A stretch of DNA of 64,000 bases from an uncultured Planctomycetaceae bacterium (GCA_964394665.1 CAYMYN010000005.1:37461-101460); one strand, 5' to 3'; shown: positions 4,099-36,544, counted from the first letter of the stretch. The notes: generated by a model from the sequence alone, not told the origin. Numbers and translations: made by a program.

Positions 4099-4836
4099 AT
4101 GTCGGCGGACCGCAACCAGCCCACCCGCGAGGCGCTCCTCGACGCGGCCGAAGAGCTCTTCGCCGCGCGGGGCTACGCGGACGTCGGGAACCGCGAGCTC
4201 GTCGCCCGCGCGGGCGCCAACGTCGCGGCCATCGCCTACCACTTCGGCTCGAAACGCGGCCTCTACCTCGAGACCGTGCGGCGCTCCTGCCTGCGCCCCG
4301 AAGCCCAGGTGGGCTGGGACCTGCTGCGGGCTCCCGCGCCCGATCCCCCCGCGGCGGCGGCGCGCCTGGTGGCGTTCCTGCGCCACTGGATGACCACCAT
4401 CCTGGCGGACAGCGAGCTGGCCTGCGGCGGGGTGCTCCTGCTGCGCGAGGCGATCCGCCCCAGCGAGGCCCTGCCCGAGTTGGTCGAGGGCTTCACCCGA
4501 CCGAACGAGGACCTGCTCGCCCAAGCCCTGGAGCCCCTGATGCCCGATGCCCCGCTCGAGGAGCTGCGTCTGTGCGCGCGCTGCCTCTTCGGGCAGGTCC
4601 TGATCCATCGCATCTACCGCCCATTCTTCGAGCGCCACTCCGCGCCCAACCGCTACGCCGCGGACGAGCTGGTCCACATCGCGGACCACCTCGCGCGCTT
4701 CAGCCTTCGCGGCCTGGCTTGCTCCGAGGAACTCGTCGAGCACGCGCTCACCCACGCGCACCTGCGCCTTCCCACCGAGACCATCGCCCCGACCGCGGGC
4801 GAGGGGCCCGCGTCCACCACCAGCCTCGAGGCGTAG
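4099..4836 (+). CDS. TetR/AcrR-family transcriptional regulator
   Basis: N-terminal TetR HTH (TREALLDAAEELFAARGYADVGNRELVARAGANVAAIAYHFGSKRGLY). Sits immediately upstream of an RND efflux operon. Confidence 0.85.
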   Translation: MSADRNQPTREALLDAAEELFAARGYADVGNRELVARAGANVAAIAYHFGSKRGLYLETVRRSCLRPEAQVGWDLLRAPAPDPPAAAARLVAFLRHWMTTILADSELACGGVLLLREAIRPSEALPELVEGFTRPNEDLLAQALEPLMPDAPLEELRLCARCLFGQVLIHRIYRPFFERHSAPNRYAADELVHIADHLARFSLRGLACSEELVEHALTHAHLRLPTETIAPTAGEGPASTTSLEA

Positions 4837-4884: not shown

Positions 4885-6021
4885 ATGCCGTCCATCCTCC
4901 GTCCGCTGCAGGCCGCCCTGCTGTCCTTCGCCGCCATCGCGGGCGCGCCGGCGCTCGCCGCCCAGGCCCCGCCGAGCCCCGTGCGGGTGCTCCCGGTCGA
5001 GCAAGGGGAAGTGGCCGACCTGCGGCCGGTGAGCGGCAGCGTGCGCGCCGCGCAGCGCGCGTTGGTCGCGGCCGAGGAGTCGGGCCTGGTGCTCGAGCTC
5101 CGTGCGCGCGAAGGCCAGCGCATCACCAAGGGCGAAGTGCTCGCGCGTCTGGATTCGACGCGCCTCGAGCTCGAGCTGTCCCGCGCGCGGGCCGAGGAGC
5201 GGCTGGCGGCGGCGACGTCCGTCGAGCGCGAGGTGGCCCTCGAACGCGCGCGGCGCGACCTCGCGATCCTCGAGGATCTCGCGCGCCGGGATGCCGGCAA
5301 TGCGCGCGAGTTGGCGGACGCGGCCTCCGACGTGCGCGCGGCCGAGGCACGTCTGGCCCAGGCCGCGGCCGAGCGTGAAGTGGTCGCCGCGCGGCGCGAG
5401 CTGCTCGAGCAGCGCATCGCCGACATGACGCCGCGCGCGCCCTTCGACGGCGTCGTGACGGCGCGCCACACCGAGGCGGGGCAGTGGATCGACGCGGGGG
5501 GCGCGCTCCTCGACCTCGTCTCGAGCGAGCCCGGCGAGATCTGGCTCGACGTTCCCCAGCGCCACTTCGTCGCCCTGCGCGAGTTCAGCGGCTCGCTGCG
5601 CGTGACCGACGACGCGACCGGCACGGCCGTCGAGGTCGGGGCCTGGCGCCTCGTGCCTGACGTCGATCCCCGGGTGCGCACCTTCCGCTTGATCGGGTCG
5701 TTGCCCGCGGCGAGCGCGATCGTCCCGGGCATGTCGGTGCGCGCCGACGTCCCGAGCGGCGAACGCGCGAACCACCTGCTCCTCTCGCCCGACGCGATCC
5801 TGCGCTCGGAAACCGGCCCCTACGTCTACGTCGCCGCCCCCTCGCCCCAGGGTCAGGGCCAGGTGGCGATGATGACGCCGATCGAGGTGCTCTTTTACAG
5901 CGAGGGCCGGGCCGTGGTGCGCTCGCCGCGCCTGGCACCCGGGACCATGGTGGTCGTCGAGGGCAACGAACGCCTCTACCCGATGGCACCCATCGCGCCG
6001 CAGGAGGCGCGAGCGCAATGA
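4885..6021 (+). CDS. RND efflux periplasmic adaptor (membrane fusion protein, HlyD/AcrA family)
   Basis: Signal/TM N-terminus, coiled-coil hairpin region, beta-barrel/lipoyl-like C-terminus (APFDGVVTARHTEAGQWIDAGGALLDL). The stop overlaps the RND start as ATGA at 6018-6021. Confidence 0.85.
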   Translation: MPSILRPLQAALLSFAAIAGAPALAAQAPPSPVRVLPVEQGEVADLRPVSGSVRAAQRALVAAEESGLVLELRAREGQRITKGEVLARLDSTRLELELSRARAEERLAAATSVEREVALERARRDLAILEDLARRDAGNARELADAASDVRAAEARLAQAAAEREVVAARRELLEQRIADMTPRAPFDGVVTARHTEAGQWIDAGGALLDLVSSEPGEIWLDVPQRHFVALREFSGSLRVTDDATGTAVEVGAWRLVPDVDPRVRTFRLIGSLPAASAIVPGMSVRADVPSGERANHLLLSPDAILRSETGPYVYVAAPSPQGQGQVAMMTPIEVLFYSEGRAVVRSPRLAPGTMVVVEGNERLYPMAPIAPQEARAQ

Positions 6022-9000
6022 ACCTCGTCCAACTCGCCGTCCGTCAGCCGGTCACCATCGCGGTCGGGGTCATCCTGATCCTGCTCGCGGGCGTGGTCTC
6101 GCTGCGGCGCATACCGATCCAGCTCACGCCCAACGTCGAGGACACGATCATCGCCGTCACGACGCGTTGGGAAGGCGCCAGCCCCCTGGAGATCGAGCGC
6201 GAAGTCGTCGACCGCCAGGAAGAACGCCTGCAGAGCATCACCAACCTCAAGAGCATCACGTCGGAGAGCCAGCAGGACCTGGGCACGATCCGCCTCGAGT
6301 TCAACGTCGGGACGACCAAGGAGCAGGCGCTGCGCGAGGTCAGCGACAAGCTGCGCGAGGTGCCGCGTTACCCGGAGAACGTGGACGAGCCCGTCATCCA
6401 GGCTTCGGACCCCGAGAACCGGGACTACATCGCTTGGATCGTGCTGCGCAGCGACGACCCGGACTTCGACGTGCGCAGCCTGCAGGACTTCGTCGAGGAT
6501 CGCGTCAAGCCGATCTTCGAGCGAGTGTCCGGCGTCTCGGAGATCAACGTCCTGGGCGGCAACCCGCGCGAAGTCCAGGTGCGCTTCGACCCTGCGCTGC
6601 TCGCCAGCAAGGGCATCACGCCCTCACGCTTCGCGCAGGCGATCCAGGCCCAGAACCGCGACGTATCCGGCGGGCGCCTCGCGGAGTCGAAGGCCGACGT
6701 TCGCGTGCGCCTGGTCGGGCAGTTCTCGAGTGTGGCGGACGTCGAGAACGCGGTGGTCGCCCACTCCGAGGGCGGCCCGATCTACGTCCGCGACCTGGCC
6801 GAGGTCGTGGAGACCTACAAGGAGCCGACGGGGTTCGTGCGTTCGCGCGGCCAGGCGGTGCTGGCCATCAACGCCCAACGGGAAGTAGGGGCCAACGTGA
6901 TGGCGGTCATGGCCGGCATCCGCTCCGCGATCGCGGACCTCAACTCCCCCGGTGGCGTGCTCGACACGCAGGCACGCCGCCTGGGCCTCGAGGGCGCCTT
7001 GCGCCTGGAGCAGGTCTACGACCAGACGATCTACATCGACGACGCCCTGGCCCTGGTGCAGAACAACATCTGGATCGGCGGGGGCCTGGCGATCCTGATC
7101 CTGCTGCTGTTCCTGCGCTCCCTGCGCACGGCCGGCATCATCGCCCTGGCGATTCCGATCTCGGTCGTCGGCGCGGTCGTCGCCATGGTCGGGCTCGGGC
7201 GCTCGATCAACGTCATCAGCCTGGCGGGCATGGCCTTCGCCGTCGGCATGGTGGTCGACAACGCGATCGTGGTGCTCGAGAACGTGTACCGGCACCTCGA
7301 GCTGGGCAAGAACTCCGTGCGCGCCGCCATCGACGGCGGACGTGAGGTGTTCGGCGCCGTGCTCGCCTCCACTCTGACCACGGTGGTCGTGTTCGTCCCG
7401 ATCCTGCTCGTCGAGGAAGAGGCGGGCCAGCTCTTCCGCGACATCTCGCTGGCGATCGTGGCCGCCGTGGCGCTCTCCCTGCTGGTTTCGGTCACGGTCA
7501 TCCCGACGTTGGCCGCGCGCCTGCTCAAGAACAAGGACAAGGCCCTGGCCAAGCCCCGTCGCCGCGGCCCGTTCGCGCGCCTGCCCGAGGCGGTCGCGAA
7601 CCTCATCTACTGGCTCAACGGGAGCTGGGTCCTGCGTACCGTTGTCGTGGTGATCCTGGCCGGCGCTTCGATCTTCGGCACGCTCAAGCTCCTGCCACCC
7701 GCGGACTACCTGCCCCAGGGAAACCGCAACCTGATCTTCGGCCTCCTCATCCCGCCGCCGAGCTACAGCCTCGATCAGCGCAACGTGCTCGCCGAACGCA
7801 TCGAGTCCACGGTGCGTCCCTACTGGGAGGCCGCGCTCACTGAGCCGGGAAGCCCGGAACGGGCCTCCCTGCCCGAGATCGACGTCCACACGCCCGACGG
7901 CCAGCTCCAGCGCACCACGGTGCCGCCGGCGATCATCAACTACTTCCTGGTCAGCTTGACAGGTTTCATGTTCCACGGCGGCATCGCCGAGGAACCCGAG
8001 CGCGTCGCCGACCTGATGCCGCTCTTCGCGCAGGCGACGCGCTCGGACGTCGCCCCGGGAGTCTTCTCCTTCGCCTTCCAGGTGCCGCTCTTCCGCCTCG
8101 GCGGCCGCACCGGTTCGGCGATCAAGATCAACTTCGTCGGCGAGAACCTCGACGAGGTAAGCAGCTCGGCCCTGGCCGTCTTCATGCGCATGATGGGCCT
8201 GTACGGCCCGGGCACGGTGCAGCCCGATCCCAGCAACTTCAACGTGCCCACGCCCGAGGTGCAGCTCGTGCCCGATCGGTTGCGGATGGCCGAGGCGGGG
8301 CTCGACTACGAGGACGTCGCCATCGCCAGCCGGGCCATGGGCGACGGTGCGATCATCGGGGAGTACCGCCTCGAGGGCGAGGCCATCGACCTCAAGATCA
8401 TCTCCAAGGACGCCCTGCTACCCGGCGCCCTGGCGAGCATCGGAGAGAACCCGATCGCCACGCCATCGGGCCAGGTGATCCCGCTGGGCTCCGTGGCGCC
8501 GCCCACGCGGGTCAACGCCGCGCAGCAGATCAACCGCGTCGGCCGCCAGCGCGCGGTGTCGCTGCAGTTCACGCCGCCCGAGGGCATGCCGCTCGAGCGC
8601 GCGGTGTCCGAAGTCTCGAACCTGCTGGAGGAGATGCGCGCCGCCGGCGCGATACCTCAGGACGTCGACACGACGTTCACAGGCTCCGCCAGCAAGCTCG
8701 CCGCGGTGCAGAACGCCCTGCTCGGCGACAAGACCTTGATCGGAACGCTCGGCAGCTCGCTCTTCCTCGCGCTCACGGTCGTGTACCTGATGATGTGCGT
8801 GCTCTTCCAGAGCTTCCTGCGCCCCTTGGTGATCATGGTCAGCGTGCCGCTCGCGACGTTGGGCGGTTTCGCGGCGCTCTCCGCCGTGCACGCTTGGAGC
8901 GTCGCCGATCCCTACATGCCGATCCAGAAGCTCGACGTCCTGACGATGCTCGGGTTCGTGATCCTGATCGGCGTGGTCGTGAACAACGCGATCCTGATCG

Positions 9001-11084
9001 TGCACCAGGCGCTGAACTTCATGCGCGGCAGCGAGGAAGCGGGCGAGTGGGGCGAGGCCGCCATGACGCCCCGCCGAGCCATCTCGGAGGCCGTGCGCAC
9101 CCGCGTGCGGCCGATCTTCATGAGCACGCTGACCTCGGTCGGCGGCATGGCGCCGCTCGTGCTCATGCCGGGCTCGGGCTCGGAGCTCTACCGCGGCCTG
9201 GGCAGCGTGGTCGTCGGCGGCCTGTTGGTCTCGACGGTCTTCACGCTGCTGCTCGTGCCGTTGCTCTTCTCCCTGGTCACCGACATCCAGCAGCGTCTGG
9301 GCATGCTGCGCGAGACGGACGAGGCCCACCAACGCGAGCTGGCCCGCGCCAAGAGCCCGTCGACGGCACAGGTCGCGACGGTGGTCCTCCTTTTGGCGCT
9401 GCTTCCCGGCTGGCTCGGTTCCTGCTCCAGCCCGCGCGCGTCCGATTCGACCTATGCCCAGCTCGCCCGGAGCGCACAGGAACGCCGTGCGGCCGAGGTC
9501 GCGCGCGCGGCCGAGCCGCACAGGACGGCGCAGAGCGAGTCCGCGCTGGGCGAGGAGCTGCGCGGCCGCATGACCGCGCTCGAGCTGATCGGGGGGCGCG
9601 CCTCGTGGCAGGACCTCGAGCCCGATCTGGGCGAAGACCTGCTCGGCGTGGAGCAGGAGCTCGCCCCGATCACGCTCGAACGCGCGGTCCTGCTCGCCGC
9701 CGAGCACAACCTGGGCCTGCGTTTCGCGCGGCTGCGGCCCCAGATCGCCGCCGAGGGCCTCTCGCGCGAGGACTCCGCCTTCGACCCGGTCTTCTTCGCG
9801 GACCTGGAGTACGAGGACTTCGAGCAACCGCGCACCGTCCCGGTGCTCGGTGGCGTGCAGCTCGGCACACCGCTGAGCGCCGCCGAGCGCGCGCGGGCGC
9901 AGCTCGGCGTGCGCCAACTCCTGCACACGGGCGCGACGGTGCAGGCCTCGACCTTCCTCGAGCGCTACGAGAACCAGACCCCGGGCATCGATTACCTGCC
10001 GGATCCCGCTTGGCGCTCGGGCGTGGCGCTCGACGTGGTGCAACCGTTGCTCTCGGGCGCGGGTCGTTCGTTCACCGACGCGGCGCGCGAGTTGGCGCGC
10101 AGCGAGCAGCGCCGCAGCGAGGAGGAACTGCGCGCCGAGCTCCTGATCGTGGCCGCCTTCGTCGAACAGGCCTTCTGGGACCTGCGCGAGGCCCGCGGTC
10201 GCTTGCAGATCCAGCAGCGCCTGACCCAGCAGGGTGCGGAAGTCGAGCGTGTGCTGCGCGAGCGACGCGGCTTCGACGTGCAGCCCGCCGAGTACGCCGA
10301 CGCACTGGCGACCCTCGAGCAGCGCCGCGCGGATCTCGTGCGTGCCCGGGCCCTGCTGCGCGCGGCCTCGGACCGCCTCAAGTCCTTGCTCGACGCGCCG
10401 GGCGTGGGCCTGGACGCCGAGGACCTGCTGCTCGCCGTGGACGACTTCCACACGGAACCGACCCCGATCGACCTGGGTGAGGCGGTCGCGACCGCCCTGG
10501 AGCGCCGCCCCGAGCTGCGCGCCGCGCTCTCTGCGATCGACGACGCCGACCTGCGCGTCGCGGTCGCGCGCAGCCTGCGTCGGCCGCGCCTGGACCTCGT
10601 CGGACGGGTCGAGGTGCTCGGCGAGGACGACTCCTTCGGCGATGGCTACGGCTCCTTGGCCGAGGACGACCTGCTCAGCTACCTGGTCGCGCTGCGCCTC
10701 GAGGTCCCCTTCGGCAACCGCGGGCCGCGCGCCGATCTGCGCCGGGCCGAGCTCGAGGCGCGGGCCGCTTCGCTGCGCCACGAGCAGGAGATGCGCAACG
10801 TGGTGCTCGAGGTCAAGACGGCCCTGCGCGACCTGGTGACGAGCTACGAGCTGATCGGCGCCGCCCGCTCGTTCCGCATCGCCCAGAGCGAGAACCTGCG
10901 CGAGCTGTTGCTCGAGAAGGAGCGACGCCGCAGCCTGACCCCCGAGTTCCTGCGCCTCGAGTTCGACCGCCAGGATCGCCTGGCCCGCGCTCAGCTCGAT
11001 GAGCTGCAGGCCATCGCCAACTACAACCGCGCCCTGGCCGCCTTCCACCGCGCCACCGGCACGGGCCCCCTGCTCGCCCCGTGA
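6018..11084 (+). CDS. RND efflux permease (AcrB/CzcA-like, ~1095 aa) fused in-frame to a TolC-like outer-membrane factor (~590 aa); one 1688-aa ORF
   Basis: Residues 1-~1090 carry the RND hallmarks (12 TM, two large periplasmic loops, FAVGMVVDNAIVVLENV). After the last TM and a ~30-aa tail, the same frame continues with no stop into MLRETDEAHQRELARAKSPSTAQVATVVLLLALLPGWLGSC (signal peptide with lipobox LGSC) and a coiled/beta TolC-like OMF domain. Confidence 0.8.
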   Translation: MNLVQLAVRQPVTIAVGVILILLAGVVSLRRIPIQLTPNVEDTIIAVTTRWEGASPLEIEREVVDRQEERLQSITNLKSITSESQQDLGTIRLEFNVGTTKEQALREVSDKLREVPRYPENVDEPVIQASDPENRDYIAWIVLRSDDPDFDVRSLQDFVEDRVKPIFERVSGVSEINVLGGNPREVQVRFDPALLASKGITPSRFAQAIQAQNRDVSGGRLAESKADVRVRLVGQFSSVADVENAVVAHSEGGPIYVRDLAEVVETYKEPTGFVRSRGQAVLAINAQREVGANVMAVMAGIRSAIADLNSPGGVLDTQARRLGLEGALRLEQVYDQTIYIDDALALVQNNIWIGGGLAILILLLFLRSLRTAGIIALAIPISVVGAVVAMVGLGRSINVISLAGMAFAVGMVVDNAIVVLENVYRHLELGKNSVRAAIDGGREVFGAVLASTLTTVVVFVPILLVEEEAGQLFRDISLAIVAAVALSLLVSVTVIPTLAARLLKNKDKALAKPRRRGPFARLPEAVANLIYWLNGSWVLRTVVVVILAGASIFGTLKLLPPADYLPQGNRNLIFGLLIPPPSYSLDQRNVLAERIESTVRPYWEAALTEPGSPERASLPEIDVHTPDGQLQRTTVPPAIINYFLVSLTGFMFHGGIAEEPERVADLMPLFAQATRSDVAPGVFSFAFQVPLFRLGGRTGSAIKINFVGENLDEVSSSALAVFMRMMGLYGPGTVQPDPSNFNVPTPEVQLVPDRLRMAEAGLDYEDVAIASRAMGDGAIIGEYRLEGEAIDLKIISKDALLPGALASIGENPIATPSGQVIPLGSVAPPTRVNAAQQINRVGRQRAVSLQFTPPEGMPLERAVSEVSNLLEEMRAAGAIPQDVDTTFTGSASKLAAVQNALLGDKTLIGTLGSSLFLALTVVYLMMCVLFQSFLRPLVIMVSVPLATLGGFAALSAVHAWSVADPYMPIQKLDVLTMLGFVILIGVVVNNAILIVHQALNFMRGSEEAGEWGEAAMTPRRAISEAVRTRVRPIFMSTLTSVGGMAPLVLMPGSGSELYRGLGSVVVGGLLVSTVFTLLLVPLLFSLVTDIQQRLGMLRETDEAHQRELARAKSPSTAQVATVVLLLALLPGWLGSCSSPRASDSTYAQLARSAQERRAAEVARAAEPHRTAQSESALGEELRGRMTALELIGGRASWQDLEPDLGEDLLGVEQELAPITLERAVLLAAEHNLGLRFARLRPQIAAEGLSREDSAFDPVFFADLEYEDFEQPRTVPVLGGVQLGTPLSAAERARAQLGVRQLLHTGATVQASTFLERYENQTPGIDYLPDPAWRSGVALDVVQPLLSGAGRSFTDAARELARSEQRRSEEELRAELLIVAAFVEQAFWDLREARGRLQIQQRLTQQGAEVERVLRERRGFDVQPAEYADALATLEQRRADLVRARALLRAASDRLKSLLDAPGVGLDAEDLLLAVDDFHTEPTPIDLGEAVATALERRPELRAALSAIDDADLRVAVARSLRRPRLDLVGRVEVLGEDDSFGDGYGSLAEDDLLSYLVALRLEVPFGNRGPRADLRRAELEARAASLRHEQEMRNVVLEVKTALRDLVTSYELIGAARSFRIAQSENLRELLLEKERRRSLTPEFLRLEFDRQDRLARAQLDELQAIANYNRALAAFHRATGTGPLLAP
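9303..11084 (+). other. Possible internal start (ATG 9303) for an independently translated OMF lipoprotein within the RND-OMF ORF
   Basis: In-frame ATG followed by an n-region, h-region and lipobox (Cys codon at ~9421-9423). Standard OMF length (~593 aa) if initiated here. Confidence 0.4.
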
Positions 11085-11251
11085 ACGCCCGCGCGGGGCC
11101 GCCGACGGATGGAGCAAGGGAGTCGGGAAAAAGCCAACCGCAACGGCTTCCGCGGCGTTGGCTAGGGTGAACCATCCCCGGGGGCGCTTTGCCCATGGGG
11201 TCCGTGCCCGTCCTCGGGCACCCACGCGGTCCCGATCCCGCCCGTCCTGCG

Positions 11252-14200
11252 ATGATCCGTTCCCCGAAGACTCCGCCCGTCCGGCCCTCGCTCCTCGCCG
11301 CCCTCCTGCTCTGCCTCGCCGGCCCGCTCGGCGCCCAGGGGACTCCGATCGGGTTTGCGGAGACCTTCGCCCTGGCCGCCGACCGCGAGCGGGCCCTCGC
11401 GGAGCTCGTGCCGGGCTCGCCCGAGCACTTCTACTACTCCTGTTTGCACGCCCAGCACCTGGGCGAGCTCGGGCGCGTCGACGGGCTCTTGCGCGCTTGG
11501 CGCGAGCGCCACGGCGACTCGGACCCGCGCCAGGATCGGGTCGCGCTGCGCCAGACGTTGCTGCGCGCCTCCCAGGATCCCCAGGGCTCCTACCGCGACC
11601 TCGTGCGGCGCCTGGGGCTGCGCTTCGATCAACGGCCCGCGCTCGGCGAGACGAACCGCGACCTGCCGACGCGCCTCGACTCGAACGAGTTGACCGACGA
11701 GGTCTGGCTGCGGGACGCCCTGAGCCGGCACCCCCGATCCCTGCGCGGCCTCGAGGACGGAGCCCTGACGCGCATGGCCGCGCGCGACCTCACGGCTGGC
11801 GAGCTGCGCGAGCTCCTCGGGCGCTTGCACCGTCCGGACGTGCCCGGGCTGGCGCGCCTGGTCGTGCGCGAGCTGGGCCTGAACGGCAGCCGCGGCTTCG
11901 GTGCCTTCCCGATCCACGGCCGCTTGCTGTTGGCGCAGCTCGAGGAGTGCCTCTCCCTGCGCCCCGAGCTGCTGGCCGACTCGAACTTCGTGCGCACCTA
12001 CCTCGTGCGCCTCACCCCCGGCGCCGACGACGACCCCCGCGACCCCGCGGTGCGCCTGGCCCACATCGAGCGGCTCGAACGCTTCGCCGCGCGCCTGCCC
12101 GCGGCCTTCGACAGCCTGCGGGCCCACGTCCTGTATCACCGCCTGGATCTCGACCTCGACCTCGACCAGCTCGACGCGGAGCGCCTGCTCGCCTACCTGC
12201 GCGTCGCGCGCCAGGCAGCCTACATCGACCCGGTCCAGCGCGAGCAGCCGGCGGTGAGCCTCTCGGAGAACTGGATGACGGGCCTGGCGCCGATCGCCGC
12301 CGACGAGCCGCTGGTGCGCGAGTACCTGGGCCGGCTGTGCGAGCGCCTCGACTCCTTCCAACGCTTCGTCGGAGTCCTGCGCCGCGACTACGTCCAGCGC
12401 ATCTTCGCCGAGGCCAAGATCCTCTCCGGCGCGCCCGATCCCGAACGTTGGTTCGCGCTGCTCGAGGACCCGCGGGTCGTCGAGGAGCTCAAGCGGCGGG
12501 TGGAGCTGCGCCTGCCGCGCGGCCTGGCGCGCAGCTTCGGCCCCGACGAGCCGGTACGCCTCGCCATCGACGTCAAGAACGTCGACACGCTGCTGGTGAA
12601 GGTCTTCGAGATCGACGCGGCGGCCTTCTACATCGCCCAGGGCGCCGCGCCACGCCTGCGCGAGCTCGACGCGACCCTCGACCTCGACGGCCTGGTGGCG
12701 CACGAGGAGCGCGCCCATCGCTACGAGGAGTCGCCGATGCGCCGCGTGCGGCGCACCTTCGACTTCCCCGAGCTCGACGAGCCGGGCGTCTACGTCGTCG
12801 AGTGGATCGGCAACGGGATCGCCAGCCGAGCCGTGATCCGCAAGGGCACCCTGCGCGTCACCGAGCGCGTCGGCGCGGCCGGCCACGTGCTGCGCGTGGT
12901 GGACGAGCAGGGCCAGCCGGCCGTGGGCGCCAGCCTGCTCTACGCCGGGCGCGAGTACGTCCCCGACGAACGCGGCGAGATCGCGATCCCCTTCAGCACC
13001 GATCCGGGCTTGCGGCACCTGGTGTTGCGGCGCGGCAACCTGGCGGTGCTCGAGGAGTTCGAGCACCTGGCGGAGACCTACGCGCTGGAGGCCCCCGTGC
13101 ACGTCGAGCGCGAAGCGCTGCTCGCCGGCGAGCGCGCCACCCTCGTCGTGCGCCCGCGCCTCCAGGTGGCGGGCCGGCCAATCAGCCTGGCGTTGCTGGA
13201 AGGCGCGCGCTTGGAGCTACGCGCCACGGACCTCGACGGTGTCGTCGCCGCATCGACCGTGCGCAACCTCGAGCTGCGCAACGGCGTCGAGTTCGTGCAC
13301 GAGTTCAACGTACCGCCGCGCACCCAGTCCTTCAGCGTGCAGCTCGCCGGCCGCGTGCGAAGCCTCAGCGAGTCCAAGGACGTCGAGCTCGCCGCGAACG
13401 TGGTCCTGTTCCCGCTCAACGGCATCGACGCCACCGACGAGCTGTGGACGCCGCTCCTGGCGCGCGCCGAGGAAGGCTACTGGCTCGAGGTGCGCGGCAA
13501 GAACGGGGAACTCGGGGCCGGCCGCGTCGTGCAGGTGACGCTCCAGCACCGCGACTACACGACCGCGCGTACGTTCCAGCTCCAGAGCGACGCGCAAGGG
13601 CGGATCGGGCTCGGCCCGCTCGAGCACATCTCGCGCCTCGAGGTGGGCGGGATCGGCGAGCGGCCCGCGGCCTGGTGGCTGGCTGCGCCGACGCCCGGCG
13701 GCCGGCCGCGCAAGCTGCACGCCCTCGAAGGTGAAGCGATCCGGGTTCCCTGGGACGGCGCGGACTCCTTCTCGCTCTTCGAGCTGCGCGGCGGCCAGTT
13801 CGCCTTCGAGCGCAGCGAGCGCGGCGCGAGCTGGGGCGGTAGCTACCTCTCGCTCGGCGACCTCGCGGCCGGCGATTACCGCCTGGAGCTGCACGGGATC
13901 GGCCGCGTGTACGACCTGCGCGTGACGCGCGGGCAGCGGGCAGCGGGCCACGCCTGGGGTGCGGTACGACGGCTCGAGCTCTCCCGGCCGCTCGAGCTCA
14001 CGATCCGAGAGGCTTCGGTGCGCGGGGAGGAGCTCGTCGTGCAACTCGCCGGTGCCGGCCCGGATGCGCGGGTCCACGTCAGCGCCCTGCGCTACGTCCC
14101 CGACGTCGACGGCCATCGCCGTCTGGGCCTGGGCCGTCTGCGGAACCTCGACTGGGACGCGCTCCACGCACCGGAGAACCAGTACGAGTCCGGCCGGCGC

Positions 14201-17200
14201 ATCAGCGACGAGTACCGCTACATCCTCGAGCGCCGCTTCGCCCAGCGCTTCCCGGGCAACATGCTGGCGCGTGCGGGGCTGCTCTTGAACCCCTGGGCGA
14301 TCGACGAGGCGACGTCGGACACGAGCGCTGGCGAGGGGGCGTTCGGTGGACGCTTTGGCGGGCGCCGCAGCTCGCGCCACGGCGGCGGGGTGGGGCCTTC
14401 GACGCGCGAGAGCGACGGGATGCCGGGCGCGCGTCCGGGCTTCGCCAACCTCGACTTCCTGGCCGAGCCCGCGCTCTTCCTCGCGAACCTGCGTCCCGAC
14501 GAGCAGGGTTTCGTGCGCCTGCCCCTCGAGCGTCTGGGGGATCGACACCTGGTGCAGGTCGTGGCCGTGGACGGGCACACCACCGTCTCGCGCAACGTCC
14601 TGCGCCCGGCCGCGGCGCCCAAGCTCCGGGATCGGCGCCTGGCCATGTCCCTCGATCCCCAGACGCACCTGGTGGAGGACCGCCGCATCGAGTTCCTCGA
14701 CGCCGGCGCAGCGTCGACCTTCACCGACGCGACGAACGCAGGGGTCGAGGTCTACGACGACCTGGGCGACGTCTACCGCTACTTCCTCACCCACGGCGGC
14801 GCGCCCGAGCTGGAGCGCTTCGAGTTCCTCGTGCGCTGGCCGTCCCTGAGCGCGGAAGAACGCCTCGCGCGCTACTCCGAGTTCGCCGGCCACGAGCTGC
14901 ACGTCTTCCTGCGCCGCAAGGACCCCGAGTTCTTCGAGCGCATCGTGCGCCCCTACCTCGCCCACAAGGCCCACAAGACCTTCCTGGACCATTGGCTCCT
15001 GGGCGCGGACCTCAACGGCTATCTCGAGCCCTGGGCCTTCGCCGAGCTGAACACCTTCGAGCGCATCCTGCTCCTGCGCGAGCTCGAGGGCGGACCGGCG
15101 CGGCACGTGCGCGAGCTGGTCGAGCTCCTGCCGCCGGAGACGTTCGCGTTGCGCACGTACTTCGATCGCCTGCTGGCGGGGAGAGCATTGGACTCGGATC
15201 GGACCCAGCTCGGGTTGTTGCTCGAGGAACGCGCCCGGGCGGAGGAAGAGGCGAAGGTCGCCCTGGTGCAGAAGGCTCCGGCCCCGGGGACGCCTTCGAC
15301 CAGCGCCGCGAGCCGCGCGCGGCGGGAACTCGGGGACGCGCCGATGGAAGGGGCGGTCGAGGAGCAGGCGGAGCTCGACCAGGCCCTCCGGGACCTGGGT
15401 TACGTCTCGGACGAGGTCTCCGACAAGGACCTGGAGCGCCGCCAGGCCCAGCGACCCTTCTTTCAAGACCTGGCCGACACCCGCGAGTTGGCCGAGCGCC
15501 ATTACTGGCGCGTGCTCCGCTCGGCCATGGACGCGGGGCTCGTCACGCCGACACCCTTCTGGCTCGATTTCGCGGAATCGGCCCCGGGCCAGGCCTTCGT
15601 CTCGAGCCGCTTCCCCCTCGCCGCTGGCAATCTGCCCGAGATGTTGCTGGCCTTGGCGCTGCTCGACCTGCCCTTCGTGGCCGAGGCGCACACATCCCAG
15701 GCCAGCCCCGAAGGGGTGGTCTTCACCGCCGGCTCGCGGCTCTTCCTGGCGCGGCGCGGCATGAAGCCGGTCGAGGCGGCGCCCGACGCGCGGCCGATCC
15801 TGGTCGGCCAGGATTTCTTCCGCCTCGACGATCCCTTCGTGTTCGAGCGGGGTCGCCAACGCGACAAGTTCGTCAGCGGCGAGTTCCTCGTCGGCGTGCC
15901 CTACGGCTGCCGCGTGGTGGTCACGAACCCCACCTCCACCCCGGTCGACGTCGAGGTCCTGCTCCAGATCCCCGAGGGCGCCCTGCCCGTACGGCGCGGC
16001 TTCGTGACCCGCGGGCGGAGCGTGACCCTGCCCGGCTACGGCAGCGCATCCATCGAGTACGGCTTCTACTTCCCCGCCGCCGGCACGTTCCGCCACTACC
16101 CGGCGCACGTTGGCGAGGACGGCGCGTTGCTCGCGTTCGCGACCCCCGCAGCGATCCAAGTCCTCGCCGCCCCCAAGGAGCTCGACCGCACCTCTTGGGA
16201 GCATCTCTCCCAGGCCGCTGAGCTCGAAGAACTGCTGGAGCATCTCGAGCGCGAGAACTTGGCCCGCGTCGACCTCTCGCGCCTCGCCTGGCGCATGCGT
16301 GAACGGGGCGCCTACGAGCGCATCCTGACCCTCTTGCGGCGCCACACGACCTTCGACCCGACCCTGTGGTCCTTCGGCCTGCACCACGGCGACGCGCGCA
16401 CGGCCCGCGAGTTCCTCGAGCGCCGCGCCGACCTCGTCGGCGCCGCCGGTCCTTGGTTGCGCTCCGAGCTGCTCACCATCGAGCCCGTCGAGCGAGGCAT
16501 CTACGAGCACCTCGAGTACGACCCGCTGGTCAACGCTCGCGCGCACCGCTTTGGCCAGGAGCGGCGCATCTACAACGAAAGCTTCGCGCGGCAGTACGGC
16601 CGTTTCCTCGAGGTCCTGGCCCACAAGCCTGCCCTCGACGACCTGGACCGCATGGCCCTGGTGCACTACCTGCTCCTGCAGGAGCGCATCGGCGAGGCCC
16701 TCGAGCACTTCGCGCTCATCGATCCCGCGGGCATCGAGGCGCGATTGCAGTACGACTACCTGGCGGCGTACCTCGCCTTCTACTCGCCCGAGCCCGGCGC
16801 CGCGCGCGCCATCGCCGCGCAGTACGCCGAGCATACCGTCCCGCGTTGGCGGGCGCGCTTCGGTGCCGTGCTGGCCCAGCTCGACGAGGCGGAGGGTCGC
16901 GGTCCGGCCGGGGCCAGCGATCCCGAGAGCCGCGACGAGCGCCAGGGCGCCCTGGCCGCCGCCACGGCGGTGCTCGAACTCGCCGTCGAGGCGCGCCGGG
17001 TCACCTTGAGCTACTCGAACCTCGGGCAGGCCGAGATCCGTTACCGGCCGATGAACATCGAGCTGCTCTTCTCGACCAGCCCCTTCCTGCAAGCCGGATC
17101 GGGCGCCTTCGCGGCGGTTCAGCCCCACCGCGTCGATCGGGTCGAGCTGCCCGCCGATCGCGACACGCTGGTCCTCGACCTACCGAAGGAGTTCGCCTCC

Positions 17201-17539
17201 GCGAACGTGCTGGTCGAGGTGCGCGGCGGCGGCCTGGTGCGCACCCAGGCCTACTACGCCCACGACCTGCGCGTGGAAGCCCGCGAGGCCTACGGGCAAC
17301 TCTCCGTGCGCCGCGCTTCCGACGGCGCCCCATTGCCCGCCACCTACGTCAAGGTCTACGCGCGCCTCTCCGACGGCCGCATCCGCTTCCACAAGGACGG
17401 CTACACCGACCTGCGCGGCCGCTTCGACTACGTCTCGGTCTCCGGCCTCGACGCCGCCCCGATCCAGCGCTTCGCCGTGCTGGTCCTGAGCGAGGAGAGC
17501 GGCGCCCTGGTCCGCGAACTCGACCCGCCCCGGCGCTGA
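11252..17539 (+). CDS. Very large secreted protein (2095 aa), function unknown
   Basis: ATG 11252 gives MIRSPKTPPVRPSLLAALLLCLAGPLGAQG (signal peptide). The 6.3-kb frame is uninterrupted, with balanced composition (aromatics, hydrophobic cores) and a helical-repeat-like N-terminal third. No thioester or other recognisable catalytic motif seen. The longer annotated start 11189 is less likely. Confidence 0.7.
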   Translation: MIRSPKTPPVRPSLLAALLLCLAGPLGAQGTPIGFAETFALAADRERALAELVPGSPEHFYYSCLHAQHLGELGRVDGLLRAWRERHGDSDPRQDRVALRQTLLRASQDPQGSYRDLVRRLGLRFDQRPALGETNRDLPTRLDSNELTDEVWLRDALSRHPRSLRGLEDGALTRMAARDLTAGELRELLGRLHRPDVPGLARLVVRELGLNGSRGFGAFPIHGRLLLAQLEECLSLRPELLADSNFVRTYLVRLTPGADDDPRDPAVRLAHIERLERFAARLPAAFDSLRAHVLYHRLDLDLDLDQLDAERLLAYLRVARQAAYIDPVQREQPAVSLSENWMTGLAPIAADEPLVREYLGRLCERLDSFQRFVGVLRRDYVQRIFAEAKILSGAPDPERWFALLEDPRVVEELKRRVELRLPRGLARSFGPDEPVRLAIDVKNVDTLLVKVFEIDAAAFYIAQGAAPRLRELDATLDLDGLVAHEERAHRYEESPMRRVRRTFDFPELDEPGVYVVEWIGNGIASRAVIRKGTLRVTERVGAAGHVLRVVDEQGQPAVGASLLYAGREYVPDERGEIAIPFSTDPGLRHLVLRRGNLAVLEEFEHLAETYALEAPVHVEREALLAGERATLVVRPRLQVAGRPISLALLEGARLELRATDLDGVVAASTVRNLELRNGVEFVHEFNVPPRTQSFSVQLAGRVRSLSESKDVELAANVVLFPLNGIDATDELWTPLLARAEEGYWLEVRGKNGELGAGRVVQVTLQHRDYTTARTFQLQSDAQGRIGLGPLEHISRLEVGGIGERPAAWWLAAPTPGGRPRKLHALEGEAIRVPWDGADSFSLFELRGGQFAFERSERGASWGGSYLSLGDLAAGDYRLELHGIGRVYDLRVTRGQRAAGHAWGAVRRLELSRPLELTIREASVRGEELVVQLAGAGPDARVHVSALRYVPDVDGHRRLGLGRLRNLDWDALHAPENQYESGRRISDEYRYILERRFAQRFPGNMLARAGLLLNPWAIDEATSDTSAGEGAFGGRFGGRRSSRHGGGVGPSTRESDGMPGARPGFANLDFLAEPALFLANLRPDEQGFVRLPLERLGDRHLVQVVAVDGHTTVSRNVLRPAAAPKLRDRRLAMSLDPQTHLVEDRRIEFLDAGAASTFTDATNAGVEVYDDLGDVYRYFLTHGGAPELERFEFLVRWPSLSAEERLARYSEFAGHELHVFLRRKDPEFFERIVRPYLAHKAHKTFLDHWLLGADLNGYLEPWAFAELNTFERILLLRELEGGPARHVRELVELLPPETFALRTYFDRLLAGRALDSDRTQLGLLLEERARAEEEAKVALVQKAPAPGTPSTSAASRARRELGDAPMEGAVEEQAELDQALRDLGYVSDEVSDKDLERRQAQRPFFQDLADTRELAERHYWRVLRSAMDAGLVTPTPFWLDFAESAPGQAFVSSRFPLAAGNLPEMLLALALLDLPFVAEAHTSQASPEGVVFTAGSRLFLARRGMKPVEAAPDARPILVGQDFFRLDDPFVFERGRQRDKFVSGEFLVGVPYGCRVVVTNPTSTPVDVEVLLQIPEGALPVRRGFVTRGRSVTLPGYGSASIEYGFYFPAAGTFRHYPAHVGEDGALLAFATPAAIQVLAAPKELDRTSWEHLSQAAELEELLEHLERENLARVDLSRLAWRMRERGAYERILTLLRRHTTFDPTLWSFGLHHGDARTAREFLERRADLVGAAGPWLRSELLTIEPVERGIYEHLEYDPLVNARAHRFGQERRIYNESFARQYGRFLEVLAHKPALDDLDRMALVHYLLLQERIGEALEHFALIDPAGIEARLQYDYLAAYLAFYSPEPGAARAIAAQYAEHTVPRWRARFGAVLAQLDEAEGRGPAGASDPESRDERQGALAAATAVLELAVEARRVTLSYSNLGQAEIRYRPMNIELLFSTSPFLQAGSGAFAAVQPHRVDRVELPADRDTLVLDLPKEFASANVLVEVRGGGLVRTQAYYAHDLRVEAREAYGQLSVRRASDGAPLPATYVKVYARLSDGRIRFHKDGYTDLRGRFDYVSVSGLDAAPIQRFAVLVLSEESGALVRELDPPRR

Positions 17540-18385: not shown

Positions 18386-20502
18386 GGCGCGGGCACGGTT
18401 GGGTCCTGTTCCTGGGCCTGCTCCTCGCGGCGACGATCGGGTGGGGCGTGTCGCGCTCGGAGCGCGGAGACGGTCCGCCTCCGCTCGCCGGCCGACCGGG
18501 TCCGCCCGGCGAGGAACCGTCCGCGCTGGAAGCCGCGGTCGCGGGTCAGCGCATCACGCGCCCCAGCGCACCCGCCTTGCTCGGTCCGTTGCCGATTCGG
18601 AGTGAGGGATTCGTCGACCTCCTCGTGCTGGGATTGCCCGAGGCGCTGCGCGAGCTGGAAGCCCAGGTCCAGCGCCCGCACCCCGAACGGCCCCAGCGGC
18701 ATCTACCTGGGCCGCGCGTGACCTTGGACGTTCGCGAAGGGCGGGCTGCGGGGCGCGTCGTCGTACCCGCCGGCGAACGGATCCACTTCGTGCTCTCCGG
18801 GCGCGGCGTGCGCGCCGTGACGGAGCGCGAGCCGCTCGAGGTGCCGGAGGGCGCCGTGCGCGCGTTCACGGTCGATCTGTCGGCCCTCTGCACGGTGCGG
18901 GGTCGGGTGGTCGACGTGCCCGGAGCGGGGGGGCGCACGGTCACCTTGCGTTACGCGCGGCGCGTGGGCGACGTGGGAGTCCTGCCGCCCCATCCCATCC
19001 CGATGCATCTCGAGACGCGCCTCGACGCGGGGGGCGAGTTCGTCTTCGGCGGCGTTCCGCGCGGCACCTTCGTGCTGGAGCTGCGCACGGCGCGCGGCGA
19101 GGTGCCCCTGGTCGAATGGCCGGCAGGAGACCCATCCCAGCGGGCCGCCTGGATCGCCTGCGAAGCGGCCTGGATCGAAGTCCGGCCGAACGATCCCTTG
19201 GTGGGTCTCGCGCCGGTCGACGGGCGCGGAGATCCGCTCGTGGGCGAGCCCTTCGCCGTGATCGCGAACGCGGGCACGGCTTCCGACGCGTTCGTCCATC
19301 CGAACGGCATCGCGTTGGTGCGCCTGGCGGAAGTGGCCGATCCCATTCGCCTTGGCCTCTTCCTACCGCGGCGCGGCGTCTACCTGCGGGATCCGTCCGC
19401 GCCCGCGCCCGTCGCGGGGGAGCGCCTCGAGATCGTGGTGGGCGAGGGGAACGCGCCCGCGGGCAGCATCCGCGTGGTCAGTGCTGGGCCACTCGACGGA
19501 GGCTTGATCGTGGACTTCGAGCGCCACGGGCCCGGCGGACCGGAACGCCTGCTCGGCCTGCAGGTGCTGCACCTGCGCCGCGGCGAAGGAGCGCTGCGGA
19601 TGGAGCGCCTACCCGACGGAGCGCGGCTGCACGGGCTGCCGGCGGGCACCTATGACCTCGCCTGGTCGTGGGGCGGAAGACGTCCCTTCGCCCAGGGCGT
19701 GGTGGTGGAGGTCGGCGGCGAAACGCTCGTCGAGGTCGACGCGCCGCGCCTGCGGGAGATCGAGATCCAAGTGGCGGAGTGGGACGGGATCCCCGAGCCC
19801 CTGCGGCCGATCGAAGTCTGGAACGAGGGCGTTTCGGCGCCGATCCGCGCGGGGCGCGCGCTCCTGCGGGTGGCCGAGCCCGTCGCCCGCGAAGTGTGGA
19901 TCCGGGGCCGACACGACTTCTGGTGGCCCCAACCGCAACGCTTGCTCCCCGAGGGCGAGGTGTATCGCCTGGAGTTGTCCTACGGACACTTCGTGCAGGT
20001 GCCGCTCGACGTCGAGCCGCTGCTCGGCGGCCGCATCGTGGCCGAGATCGACCAGGACCCGCGCCGCGCAGAGCTCGTCGAGGGCCGCGGCGCCCCGCGC
20101 TGGGTGCAGCCGCAGGCCGACGGGCGCCCGTTGCTCGTCTTCGAGCCCGACGATCCGCCCGCGGGCCGCGTGTTGGAGTTCGGCCAGGGCTTCAAGCTCC
20201 TGCGCGGTTGGTTCGACCTCGCCGCCGCAGCGCCGGTCTCCGTGGGGACCTTCTCCGGCCATTGGTGCGACGTCTCGTTCGAGGCCGGGGGGAGCTTCGT
20301 CGAGGTGTACCTCGAGGGACCCACCCGCAGCGACCAGGCCGCGGCGCGCACGAAGGTCGCGACCCTCGACTCCAGCCTCCCGGCGCGCATCTGGGTGCCC
20401 GACGGAGCGCGAACGCTCCTGGCGCGCGACCCGCTTGGGAACGAGGCCCGCGTCGAGCTCACCGGTGCTCCGGCGTTGCTCGAGATCGACCTCTGGCGCT
20501 GA
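18382..20502 (+). CDS. Membrane-anchored protein with carboxypeptidase-regulatory-like beta-sandwich repeats (anti-sigma-like paralog)
   Basis: GTG 18382 (4-nt overlap with the upstream stop) gives VRRGHGWVLFLGLLLAATIGWGV (TM). Repeats of type TVTLRYAR...GGEFVFGGVPRGTFVLEL. Similar style to the C-terminal parts of the ECF fusion proteins. Confidence 0.6.
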   Translation: MRRGHGWVLFLGLLLAATIGWGVSRSERGDGPPPLAGRPGPPGEEPSALEAAVAGQRITRPSAPALLGPLPIRSEGFVDLLVLGLPEALRELEAQVQRPHPERPQRHLPGPRVTLDVREGRAAGRVVVPAGERIHFVLSGRGVRAVTEREPLEVPEGAVRAFTVDLSALCTVRGRVVDVPGAGGRTVTLRYARRVGDVGVLPPHPIPMHLETRLDAGGEFVFGGVPRGTFVLELRTARGEVPLVEWPAGDPSQRAAWIACEAAWIEVRPNDPLVGLAPVDGRGDPLVGEPFAVIANAGTASDAFVHPNGIALVRLAEVADPIRLGLFLPRRGVYLRDPSAPAPVAGERLEIVVGEGNAPAGSIRVVSAGPLDGGLIVDFERHGPGGPERLLGLQVLHLRRGEGALRMERLPDGARLHGLPAGTYDLAWSWGGRRPFAQGVVVEVGGETLVEVDAPRLREIEIQVAEWDGIPEPLRPIEVWNEGVSAPIRAGRALLRVAEPVAREVWIRGRHDFWWPQPQRLLPEGEVYRLELSYGHFVQVPLDVEPLLGGRIVAEIDQDPRRAELVEGRGAPRWVQPQADGRPLLVFEPDDPPAGRVLEFGQGFKLLRGWFDLAAAAPVSVGTFSGHWCDVSFEAGGSFVEVYLEGPTRSDQAAARTKVATLDSSLPARIWVPDGARTLLARDPLGNEARVELTGAPALLEIDLWR

Positions 20503-20630
20503 CCACCCTGGGTGCCTGCGACGGCCCCCAGGGCCACGGGTTCGACGTGCCCCGGCGCCCAGAGCCCGGCGGACGCCCACGCGCGCCGGATCGGGAACGA
20601 TCGGGCGTGCGCGGTGTTGAATGGGGTGCC

Positions 20631-23600: not shown

Positions 23601-23771
23601 ACCAGCGATTCCGCCCACGGTCGCACGGACTCCGACGGTCGCCTGCACCTCGTGCTGCGCTCCGGCGCGATCCTGGTCTCGGCCCACCACGGTTTCCTCG
23701 CACCGGCCACGAGCTCCCGCGTGTCGCTCGGCGTCGATGGGCTGGAGCAGATCGTGCTCGAGCTCGAGTGA
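20631..23771 (+). CDS. ECF sigma factor fused to a TM segment and ~800-aa extracytoplasmic carboxypeptidase-regulatory-like repeat region (single-chain sigma/anti-sigma-like protein)
   Basis: Sigma-70 region 2 (DLAQEVWLAALRRP) and region 4 (LLLRYYEGLAPREVARRLGVPAATVRTRLHRGLQRL). Then, with no stop, MKKMLAAIALLGIGLVAWRL (TM) and repeats such as GVRVRGAPH / GRYELAGLQPGRYRLEV. Probable GTG start at 20631 (alt. 20607). The N-terminus aligns with the paralog at 33491-36544. Confidence 0.7.
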   Translation: MQTPGASIEELLGHADFVRRLARELVGEETGAEDLAQEVWLAALRRPPGGGERLRGWLAVTARNLLANRRREQGRRGARERDAAREESVPSAESVLEREELRAQVVRAVLALDAPLREVLLLRYYEGLAPREVARRLGVPAATVRTRLHRGLQRLRAGLDERNGGRSWAVLLAPWTRVPSGAAWILGGIAMKKMLAAIALLGIGLVAWRLSGGEAEVEPRPPSSVVGPSAERAPRTDGEPAPQEITGERAGEITEARTSLAQEGPGATVGRRVFPADRGRGAVWGEVVDAQDRPLAGVRVRGAPHLGNLPPGLVIDDDRRAVVEARSGIDGRFRLEDLEEGPVLVEARFEDGGRAARVVVLARDGEQGPVRLSPPHPEAARGRMTVRVVDGAGEAVAGARVEVFGWSRQNVEPDVIGTADRVPLARGDTDGEGRFGAELPGLESGVAFASGPDGSCGRSRFTGLHGEASALVVVLEPPASLVGELVGARAEDLVGATLALHALVDLNAYFSYAGRRFEIELSGPRFEFHGLPAGTFGITLRAPESLRLVVGRTRAGEFEFENSVAMPEVVLVPGETAAIELPVALGARLVGRVRAAGRPVPGARVRAVIAPRTSFHPAGFVLHGVHVWRLDSAYENGPHNPLSHVTGTSDAQGRYELAGLQPGRYRLEVVADGLSLDRRMDLELSAGASLQLEHDLVEAGVLQVAALGLGYLGLIPQGSSAPEILAIVRDDFATIPGLRPGLWSVARFHSNESVAPVILGEAWIEAGRTTWLDLRESSVRAHIRGIVLDGDMPVPNAGVRIGATTARTDDAGSFHLQLGHPPRFGTGFGASIEIRQGGTEYTFVPDAQGPVERLDLMLDLGPYRVPIELVDATGSRLEGRIEFQLEAAEPRGSEPRSLRGSLLAGASEPTFVGPLPAGTLVGRAVLADGLVLPFEASVPRDRLVHLQRPATGTLEVQVQRAGVPVGGARVSAWVWRGEGEPPDDASEFVATSDSAHGRTDSDGRLHLVLRSGAILVSAHHGFLAPATSSRVSLGVDGLEQIVLELE

Positions 23772-36400: not shown

Positions 36401-36544
36401 AGGGCGGCGCAGGGCCGCCAGCCAGGTCTCCTGCAGCACCTCGTCCGCCTCGCCCTCGCCGACCAGGCGCCGGGCCAGGTCCCGGGCCCACGCGGAGTGG
36501 GCCAGCAGGGCTTCGATGGGGACGGGCGGGAGGGCGTCGCTCAT
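33491..36544 (-). CDS. ECF sigma factor fused to a TM segment and ~800-aa extracytoplasmic carboxypeptidase-regulatory-like repeat region (paralog of 20631-23771)
   Basis: N-terminal sigma regions 2 and 4 (VLQETWLAALRRPP...LLLRYFEGLTGAEIARRSGVPAGTVRWRLHSALAELR). Then, in-frame, MKTLVLTSALAGSLCLVLLGVRLL (TM) and repeats (GVRVRVAGAQ..., GRFELTLRAGGRYVVRAQV). 1017 aa uninterrupted. Confidence 0.7.
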   Translation of the reverse strand: MSDALPPVPIEALLAHSAWARDLARRLVGEGEADEVLQETWLAALRRPPRAGGDPRPWLGRVLGSAARQRARRRRRVEAREAAAARDEALPSAAELAARAESQGLLIEAVLALDEPLRETLLLRYFEGLTGAEIARRSGVPAGTVRWRLHSALAELRAHLERRKGGGRGGWCAALAPLLGPRAQLAGAGGLPIPILGALAMKTLVLTSALAGSLCLVLLGVRLLGGGERADAPAQDLAFLPLPAASGSAAVDAADDPAQGSLRTALVAREPEPAGEAGGSAAEPLARLRLRLVDGQGAPIGGARVDVSPGSIAQGTHTGADGRAELAVRPLPGPGHHTLSFRRAGFANDSLRVSARAGEPIDLGDVVLRAGGAAEGVVVDGRGEPVAGVRVRVAGAQRVLPGGSMRLSETTALGASEARTDELGRFRLEGLLAGNVSLSAESDDRMWSGGRDGVEIRPNHGTRGVRIVVTELEAERRIVGSVVDPEGVPVPHAPIFVRGKTLWRSSSSLAVADAQGNFRVRLQWTGTWDLTARDPHDRFAQVERRGVRGGTRGLVLRFEPPRHARLRVLAADGSPIEDWTGELRVEDAGASVERLVPGPLRLPTRPFTLLVVAPGFDQRELGPFDPGQLVDAQVLDCTLNPLPGVRGRVSEAGAPAADVEVGLHALLTTRATRGGFPIWIEPDPEVRARTDADGRFELTLRAGGRYVVRAQVAGRAPAELGPFELEPGVGLSGLELELGAGGSIEGRVEHADGRPAVGRVVAASRGDGQLRTARAGPDGRYGLANLTPGRWLVCPIDDRSPGGGNDLSVDGSRPPHAELPWNCEVFEGAVTRFDLAGERRAGRLSGHLEAEGVEREGWHVELVPLAVAGPATFQETRLDADGRFAFELEVPGTYLLDITCPRGLRLLDEIEADGGALEWRQRLPVGRLELTNVPAVEPGRVPFVVWEGSGTCFALVPLLPDGEGRAAPDPVPAGSLRVVRPPAPGERAALAGEDPRAWPSLERLELPEGGLLRARLP

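Follow-up and report, generated by a model that had tools for sequence, protein, structure and literature searches.

Gram-negative bacteria owe their intrinsic multidrug efflux mainly to tripartite pumps of the RND (resistance-nodulation-division) class, and it is debated how, and in what ratio, the outer-membrane channel is recruited to the inner-membrane component. AcrAB-TolC, MexAB-OprM, and MdtABC-TolC combine a membrane fusion protein (MFP), an HAE1-type RND permease with 12 transmembrane (TM) helices, and a trimeric-type outer-membrane factor (OMF), with the gene order TetR-MFP-RND-OMF. The same components in the same order were identified in a 64,000-nt stretch of DNA (hereafter the window) from an uncultured Planctomycetaceae bacterium (GCA_964394665.1, CAYMYN010000005.1:37461-101460). 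Unlike in the AcrAB-TolC-type pumps, the RND and the OMF of this locus are encoded by one open reading frame (ORF) and are joined through an internal signal peptide.

Some features of this protein resemble known fusions and known lipoproteins. The cytochrome b-c1 polyprotein FbcH of Bradyrhizobium japonicum joins a polytopic inner-membrane protein with a cytoplasmic end to a periplasm-facing partner, and is cut at the retained signal peptide to give 1:1 subunits. The planctomycete protein is likewise fused through the retained internal signal peptide of the partner, with cleavage being predicted. FbcH is a substrate of type I signal peptidase, and its two subunits remain in the inner membrane, whereas here signal peptidase II (LspA) is the predicted protease and one product would go to the outer membrane. 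In ABC importers with a fused substrate-binding lipoprotein, such as OpuABC and GlnPQ of Lactococcus, a lipoprotein is also fused to the transporter, with the former signal peptide forming an extra TM. These importers are uncleaved and are not known to keep the lipobox Cys, whereas the Cys and a small residue at position -1 are invariant in the planctomycete fusions. OprM/NodT/CusC-type lipoprotein OMFs share the two OEP repeats and a lipobox Cys directly after a hydrophobic signal segment. In contrast to their N-terminal signal peptides, that of the planctomycete protein lies at residue ~1119-1135 of the precursor. The planctomycete OMF further differs from them in an ~84-aa N-terminal extension and in a predicted model with 4+2 instead of 2+2 strands.

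Full-text literature searches brought up neither a natural RND-OMF fusion nor an internal lipobox; mention in TCDB, InterPro, or subscription journals is possible. In the available portions of a 2021 comprehensive review of tripartite systems, SecDF and ABC-domain fusions are mentioned and an RND-OMF fusion is not. The fused sequences are already in databases; as far as we can tell, their architecture is undiscussed.

The fused reading frame and its two halves

The features of the fused gene are as follows (positions counted from the first nucleotide of the window; basis of each assignment in brackets).

6018..11084 (stop codon included), plus strand: fused RND-OMF ORF, 1688 aa, ATG start (ORF listing, translation)
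6018..9281, plus strand: RND permease module, aa 1-1088, 12 TM, HAE1/AcrB-MdtB-like (ACR_tran, AcrB alignment, hydropathy)
9282..9371, plus strand: cytoplasmic linker, aa 1089-1118, 30 aa (alignment of fused homologues, column conservation)
9303..9305, plus strand: ATG of Met1096, proposed as an internal start but unconserved (alignment of 69 fused proteins)
9372..9422, plus strand: hydrophobic segment VATVVLLLALLPGWLGS, aa 1119-1135, internal signal-peptide h-region and putative TM13 (Kyte-Doolittle, alignment)
9414..9425, plus strand: lipobox L-G-S-C, aa 1133-1136, with predicted lipidation at Cys1136 (9423-9425) (alignment, PROSITE pattern)
9423..11081, plus strand: predicted mature OMF, aa 1136-1688, 553 aa, with an ~84-aa N-terminal extension followed by a TolC/OprM-type protomer (Pfam, AF2, Foldseek)

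The 1688-aa ORF runs without interruption, as a preliminary description of the sequence had claimed, and the translation across the junction is free of stops (...LFSLVTDIQQRLG-MLRETDEAHQRELARAKSPSTAQ-VATVVLLLALLPGWLGS-C-SSPRASDS...). This single frame contains Pfam ACR_tran in its N-terminal two-thirds (E 7e-187) and OEP in its C-terminal third (two stretches, E 1e-21). The window has a G+C content of ~72% and its ORF listing contains many overlapping long ORFs. Long chance ORFs are common at this G+C content, so the length of the fused ORF proves little by itself. The fusion stands above chance because strong domain matches share one frame and because this continuity is found in ~70 diverged clusters and 22 species-representative genomes.

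A whole-protein search retrieved 68 full-length fused clusters (P0001-P0068) of 1671-1737 aa that share 53-66% amino acid identity with the query, together with two partial clusters. Query coverage is 98-100% in 65 of the 68, and all RND-only relatives score below the fused clusters. The fused clusters come from NCBI, JGI, ENA, and Logan assemblies, and several recur on 2-26 contigs from different samples (26 for P0049, 7 for P0004, and 7 for P0023). The exact window protein has no match in public assemblies, its nearest relatives being ~65% identical. The OMF-half profile was also scanned against one genome per GTDB species, and 80 loci were retrieved, nearly all labelled as Planctomycetota or Phycisphaerae metagenome-assembled genomes (MAGs). 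At 22 of these loci, two of which end at contig ends, the OMF forms the C-terminal part of a continuous ORF that also encodes the RND. The remaining 57 loci, and in addition a locus named L032, carry stand-alone OMF orthologues with 33-44% identity (best segment). The preliminary description had raised the question whether homologous fused ORFs exist in related genomes; they do, and these homologues indicate that the fusion is shared by a clade within Planctomycetota.

Six short OMFs from an exhaustive search of 50% representatives (P0121, P0122, P0124, P0126, P0129, and P0145) were considered as stand-alone counter-examples and rejected, as they start within or just after an RND tail and are truncated fused genes. 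For example, positions 1-22 of the Logan contig of P0121 (L088) are a Nextera transposase adapter (…AGATGTGTATAAGAGACAG), followed by the in-frame RND tail EAQERLGLLRE. Truncated at this adapter, the fused gene appeared in protein collections as a stand-alone OMF of 591 aa. Fused proteins are publicly annotated as 'efflux RND transporter permease subunit', with one JGI entry reading 'AcrB/outer membrane protein TolC'. Because this annotation hides the OMF, genome surveys of OMFs in Planctomycetota will undercount.

The RND module matches ACR_tran with 623.6 bits over two stretches, the best of which spans profile positions 2-588 of 1021. It can be aligned end to end with both AcrB and MdtB, and query aa 9-1087 align with AcrB 7-1029, that is, through TM12. 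TM helices were assigned with a crude Kyte-Doolittle window and AcrB homology. The hydropathy peaks at aa 11-29, 351-494 (several), 541-559, and 911-1087 (several) fit TM1, TM2-6, TM7, and TM8-12, respectively, giving the 1+5/1+5 arrangement in which two large loops face the periplasm. In established AcrB structures (e.g., 1IWG), the C-terminus lies in the cytoplasm.

The module differs from AcrB in its intramembrane motifs and in its scores against NCBIfam RND_permease_1/2 and TIGR00915, which lie far under the cutoffs (549.7, 403, and 346 bits; cutoffs 1250, 1250, and 940). The TM4 motif VVDNAIVV (7251-7274, aa 412-419) has Asn at the position of AcrB D408, and the TM10 motif VVNNAIL (8976-8996, aa 987-993) has Asn at that of K940. 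The corresponding motifs in solved HAE1 pumps are VVDDAIVV and (A/K)KNAIL. The equivalents of AcrB D407 and R971 are retained. The salt-bridge pair D408/K940 thus looks replaced by a neutral pair. Since both positions are Asn in all 121 fused and unfused planctomycete relatives, the RND module is assigned to a divergent subfamily.

The C-terminal half contains two OEP repeats (77.8-83 bits; cutoff 22). The AF2 monomer model of the predicted mature OMF has a pLDDT of 86 and a pTM of 0.80. Its top Foldseek matches are TolC, CusC, OprM, MtrE, OprN, CmeC, and SilC (E ~1e-16 to 1e-14), with a probability of 1.00 and target-normalised TM-scores of 0.62-0.77 for TolC, CusC, OprM, MtrE, OprN, and TOprJ1. 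These matches confirm the TolC-like fold of the OMF that had been proposed to follow the junction. A 12-sequence OMF profile searched against solved structures also gave matches that include CusC, SilC, an OprJ-like protein, and CmeC. CusC, SilC, and CmeC are taken here to be lipoproteins, in part from the molecule names given by their depositors. Fifty-seven columns are invariant among 12 diverse members, indicating clear purifying selection on the OMF half.

The ~84-aa extension is common to the stand-alone orthologues, and the median distance from the Cys to the conserved FD motif hardly differs (fused, 122 aa; stand-alone, 123 aa). Model residues 11-30 within this extension are predicted to be helical (pLDDT ~90). 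The model also contains four beta-strands in the first repeat (residues 123-134, 153-166, 172-184, and 197-208; 9789-10046) and two in the second, while TolC has two per repeat. This 4+2 arrangement points to an additional hairpin, or to a larger barrel, in the planctomycete OMF family.

The junction and its predicted processing

In the alignment of 69 fused proteins, the linker between the two halves is variable in length and sequence (column conservation 0.2-0.6) and in frame in every homologue. The distance from the end of TM12 to the Cys ranges from 33 to 66 aa. The segment that follows gives a Kyte-Doolittle peak of 1.89 at aa 1119-1137. It is the sole extra hydrophobic segment beyond the RND pattern, with none downstream, and a hydrophobic run precedes the Cys in all 69 proteins. 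Cys1136 is present in 69 of 69 proteins; within aa 1092-1180 no other column is invariant or more than 0.78 conserved. Position -1 is occupied by G (55), S (11), or A (3), and position -3 by L in 40 and F in 7 proteins. The S1135-C1136 bond is the predicted LspA cleavage site. The query sequence LALLPGWLGS-C fits the PROSITE PS51257 core pattern, {DERK}(6)-[LIVMFWSTAG](2)-[LIVMFYSTAGCQ]-[AGS]-C. Elsewhere in all 69 fused proteins this pattern has only two matches. Ordinary lipoprotein precursors have the Cys within the first ~15-35 residues after a basic N-terminus, whereas here it is residue 1136. All 56 stand-alone OMFs with the N-terminus present have such an ordinary N-terminal lipoprotein signal peptide. 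Their lipobox Cys aligns with Cys1136, and their position -1 shows the same spectrum as in the fused proteins (G43/S10/A3).

The fused gene probably encodes a polyprotein precursor of two tripartite-pump components that would be cut at the internal lipobox. The protein has the layout expected of such a precursor, with a cytoplasmic end (AcrB homology through TM12), then a hydrophobic signal segment, and then an exported OMF module. In this mechanism, the RND module would insert in the cytoplasmic membrane with 12 TM helices and a cytoplasmic C-terminus. After the linker, the retained signal peptide of the OMF lipoprotein would insert N-in/C-out as a 13th TM, an orientation that is usual for a signal peptide, because the preceding RND tail is cytoplasmic. 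The Sec machinery would then translocate the ~550-aa OMF module, as it does for the two ~300-aa periplasmic RND loops after TM1 and TM7. Lgt would add diacylglycerol to Cys1136 and LspA would cleave between S1135 and C1136. The predicted products are an RND protein with an extra C-terminal helix, the former signal peptide, and a mature OMF lipidated at its N-terminus; this OMF would move to the outer membrane and trimerise. Together with the separate MFP, these products would make up a TetR-controlled MFP-RND-OMF pump of the ordinary kind. The RND:OMF ratio would be fixed at 1:1 (3:3 per pump), and each channel would be released beside its own pump.

TM13 insertion, lipidation, cleavage, and pump function are all steps that we infer from the sequences. 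The strongest argument for processing is that a mere membrane anchor could dispense with both the invariant Cys and the small residue at position -1. A 13th TM with release at the lipobox had been put forward in the preliminary description. The conserved fusion, the AcrB topology, the single extra hydrophobic segment, and the Cys in 69 of 69 proteins favour this view, with cleavage as its predicted step.

Several observations weigh against processing. Some members of the clade have a lipobox that departs from the canonical form: Pro occupies position -2 in 22 of 69 fused proteins, compared with 2 of 56 stand-alone proteins, and the PROSITE core pattern is present in 44 of 69, most of the others reading LPGC. 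The C-x-x-P motif (Pro at C+3) is found in 21 of 69 fused and 56 of 57 stand-alone proteins. Since this motif is mostly gone, processing or sorting may differ in the fused proteins. The 10 aa preceding the hydrophobic run carry a lower mean net positive charge than those of stand-alone signal peptides (+1.1 vs +2.1), and the uncharged run is slightly longer (20.4 ± 4.3 vs 16.9 ± 3.8 aa), making the segment more TM-like. The literature search brought up no instance of an internal signal peptide being cut by LspA.

With these differences at -2 and C+3, the lipobox and its surroundings (9417-9434, aa 1134-1139, and the equivalent positions of homologues) diverge between fused and stand-alone proteins, which may reflect different sorting or processing.

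The longer run and the weaker charge also suit a different fate, in which the segment stays as a permanent 13th TM, with or without lipidation of the Cys by Lgt, and the OMF remains covalently attached to the RND. Each chain would then reach across the envelope, its ~84-aa N-terminal extension connecting the inner membrane with the barrel in the outer membrane. The enrichment of Pro at -2 and the relaxed C-x-x-P motif could mean relaxed LspA or sorting constraints, and the ABC importers with fused binding domains, e.g., OpuABC, offer a precedent for a former signal peptide kept as an anchor. By simple arithmetic, ~84 residues in a largely extended form could in principle span ~170-200 Å. The extension, however, shows no adaptation as a tether: it is no longer than in the stand-alone orthologues and, being largely helical in the model, is not a free linker. 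A tether would also need a path outside the MFP sheath, and it would leave the invariant Cys and the obligatory G, S, or A at -1, both seen in 69 of 69 proteins, without a need. We regard an uncleaved tether, the main rival to processing, as unlikely. A specific form of it, in which 13-TM chains continue into outer-membrane barrel strands and the trimer makes a covalently closed conduit across both membranes, with Cys1136 lipidated in place or serving another role, appears less likely still.

The OMF might instead be made independently as a lipoprotein precursor from ATG 9303, as also suggested earlier, or from another in-frame start, with read-through from the RND being incidental. Translation from ATG 9303 would give a 40-aa signal peptide, and a Met is present somewhere in the linker of 24 of 69 fused proteins. 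The Met1096 column itself is unconserved, Leu being its most frequent residue (25% of 69) and the rest mixed. Start codons were checked at the DNA level in 18 fused sequences (the window and 17 loci). No ATG, GTG, or TTG occurs in the linker of four of these (L008, L017, L022, and L071), and a Shine-Dalgarno-like motif is found at the linker in 0 of 18. In addition, the frame is preserved across linker indels in all ~70 clusters. These results speak against independent translation of the OMF, which we consider very improbable; the full-length chain would be translated in any case because the RND has no stop of its own. A lost stop or shifted frame caused by error, or a decaying OMF remnant, would be aided by the high G+C content, at which stop codons are rare and long ORFs are easy, and by the separate genes of L032. 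Against this, the same architecture is repeated in ~70 clusters from independent assemblies in four sources and in 22 species representatives, the OMF half is under purifying selection and folds confidently, and both L032 proteins group outside the fused clade. The sequencing or assembly error raised in the preliminary description was therefore rejected, and the probability of an artefact or pseudogene is negligible. The lipobox-cleaved polyprotein accordingly remains our preferred interpretation.

Origin of the fusion

The evolutionary relationships were examined with neighbor-joining (NJ) trees, which are distance trees without outgroups. In the tree of the OMF part, the fused sequences form one clade free of stand-alone OMFs. 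In the tree of the RND part, a split sets apart a group that contains all fused sequences, four unfused RNDs (P0077, P0081, P0085, and P0088), and one fused fragment that was scored as unfused. These four may represent secondary loss of the OMF half or tree noise. Secondary fission was suspected for the four, but at the three loci examined (L083, L085, and L087, carrying P0077, P0085, and P0088) tblastn found no OMF downstream. At two of these three loci the next genes encode 406 aa and 338 aa without a Pfam match, and the 338-aa protein starts with a lipoprotein-like signal peptide (MKIRGLTAVVLALAAC). Overall, the trees fit one old fusion event.

Among the stand-alone loci, L032 (CAZLXE010000047.1, 5731-5748), from a MAG with 58% G+C, has the two genes side by side. 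Its RND gene ends with TGA; 12 nt further on, an OMF lipoprotein gene begins with ATG, without a change of frame (MSRPYFNFITPALLMVALPLGC/QSPF). It had appeared as a fused locus and was rejected as such, since the tblastn alignment ran through the TGA stop between the separate genes. Judging from this arrangement, one substitution would yield the fused architecture. Both its RND and its OMF group with unfused or stand-alone sequences, outside the fused clade, so L032 illustrates a possible pre-fusion state and is not a direct ancestor or sister. At least one stand-alone orthologue, that at locus L045, is an orphan gene among housekeeping genes.

The fusion probably arose when an RND gene lost its stop codon and was thereby joined to the OMF lipoprotein gene that followed it in the same frame. 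The stop loss suggested earlier for this lineage is in this respect probably true, but it is not recent: it would be an old event fixed in the whole clade (~70 clusters and 22 species). Close relatives with separate, overlapping RND and OMF genes at this locus had been named as evidence that would count against a true fusion. L032 has separate genes, 12 nt apart, and lies outside the fused clade.

Significance, operon layout, and other features of the window

This natural, clade-wide fusion shows that evolution can hard-wire the 1:1 stoichiometry of RND and OMF and their co-delivery. If the predicted processing is true, the junction would show signal peptidase II at work, in nature, on a signal peptide internal to a 12-TM protein; no precedent for this was found in the literature. 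Globomycin would then be expected to block the conversion of a 180-kDa precursor to products of ~120 and ~60 kDa. The fusion may also bear on how planctomycetes assemble trans-envelope machines; a link to the idea of an unusually large planctomycete periplasm is speculative.

Two genes precede the fused ORF.

4099..4836, plus strand: TetR-family regulator gene at the head of the operon (Pfam TetR_N, E 1e-13; CecR_C, E 1e-16)
4885..6021, plus strand: periplasmic adaptor (MFP) gene (TIGR01730 RND_mfp, 165.9 bits, cutoff 94.9; Pfam HlyD_3 and HlyD_D23)

The regulator also matches NCBIfam TetR-type repressor models, all under the curated cutoffs. The MFP begins with MPSILRPLQAALLSFAAIAGAPALAAQ..., an N-terminal signal peptide resembling those of type I signal peptidase substrates and without a Cys, and its sequence indicates that it is not a lipoprotein. 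The MFP stop and the ATG of the fused ORF overlap by 4 nt (ATGA, 6018-6021). With the TetR and MFP genes found upstream by Pfam and NCBIfam and the RND and OMF in one ORF, the locus is a TetR-MFP-RND-OMF operon with the unusual architecture first described for it. No sigma-70-like sites were found in the promoter scan. The terminator scan of the plus strand gave one weak hit, at 9371-9386 within the fused ORF.

Directly 3' of the pump operon, the ORF at 11189-17539 (plus strand, 2116 aa) has no Pfam match; rival long ORFs occur on both strands and its status as a gene is putative. Two long ORFs, at 33491-36544 (minus strand) and 19668-23771 (plus strand), combine CarboxypepD_reg repeats and DUF4198 with ECF sigma-70 regions 2 and 4. 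Each may be a true fusion, or an over-long ORF call in high-G+C DNA may have joined neighbouring genes. Ser/Thr protein kinases are encoded at 50838-54131 and 37535-40504 (both plus strand), one of them with a C-terminal FGE-sulfatase (SUMF1-like) domain.

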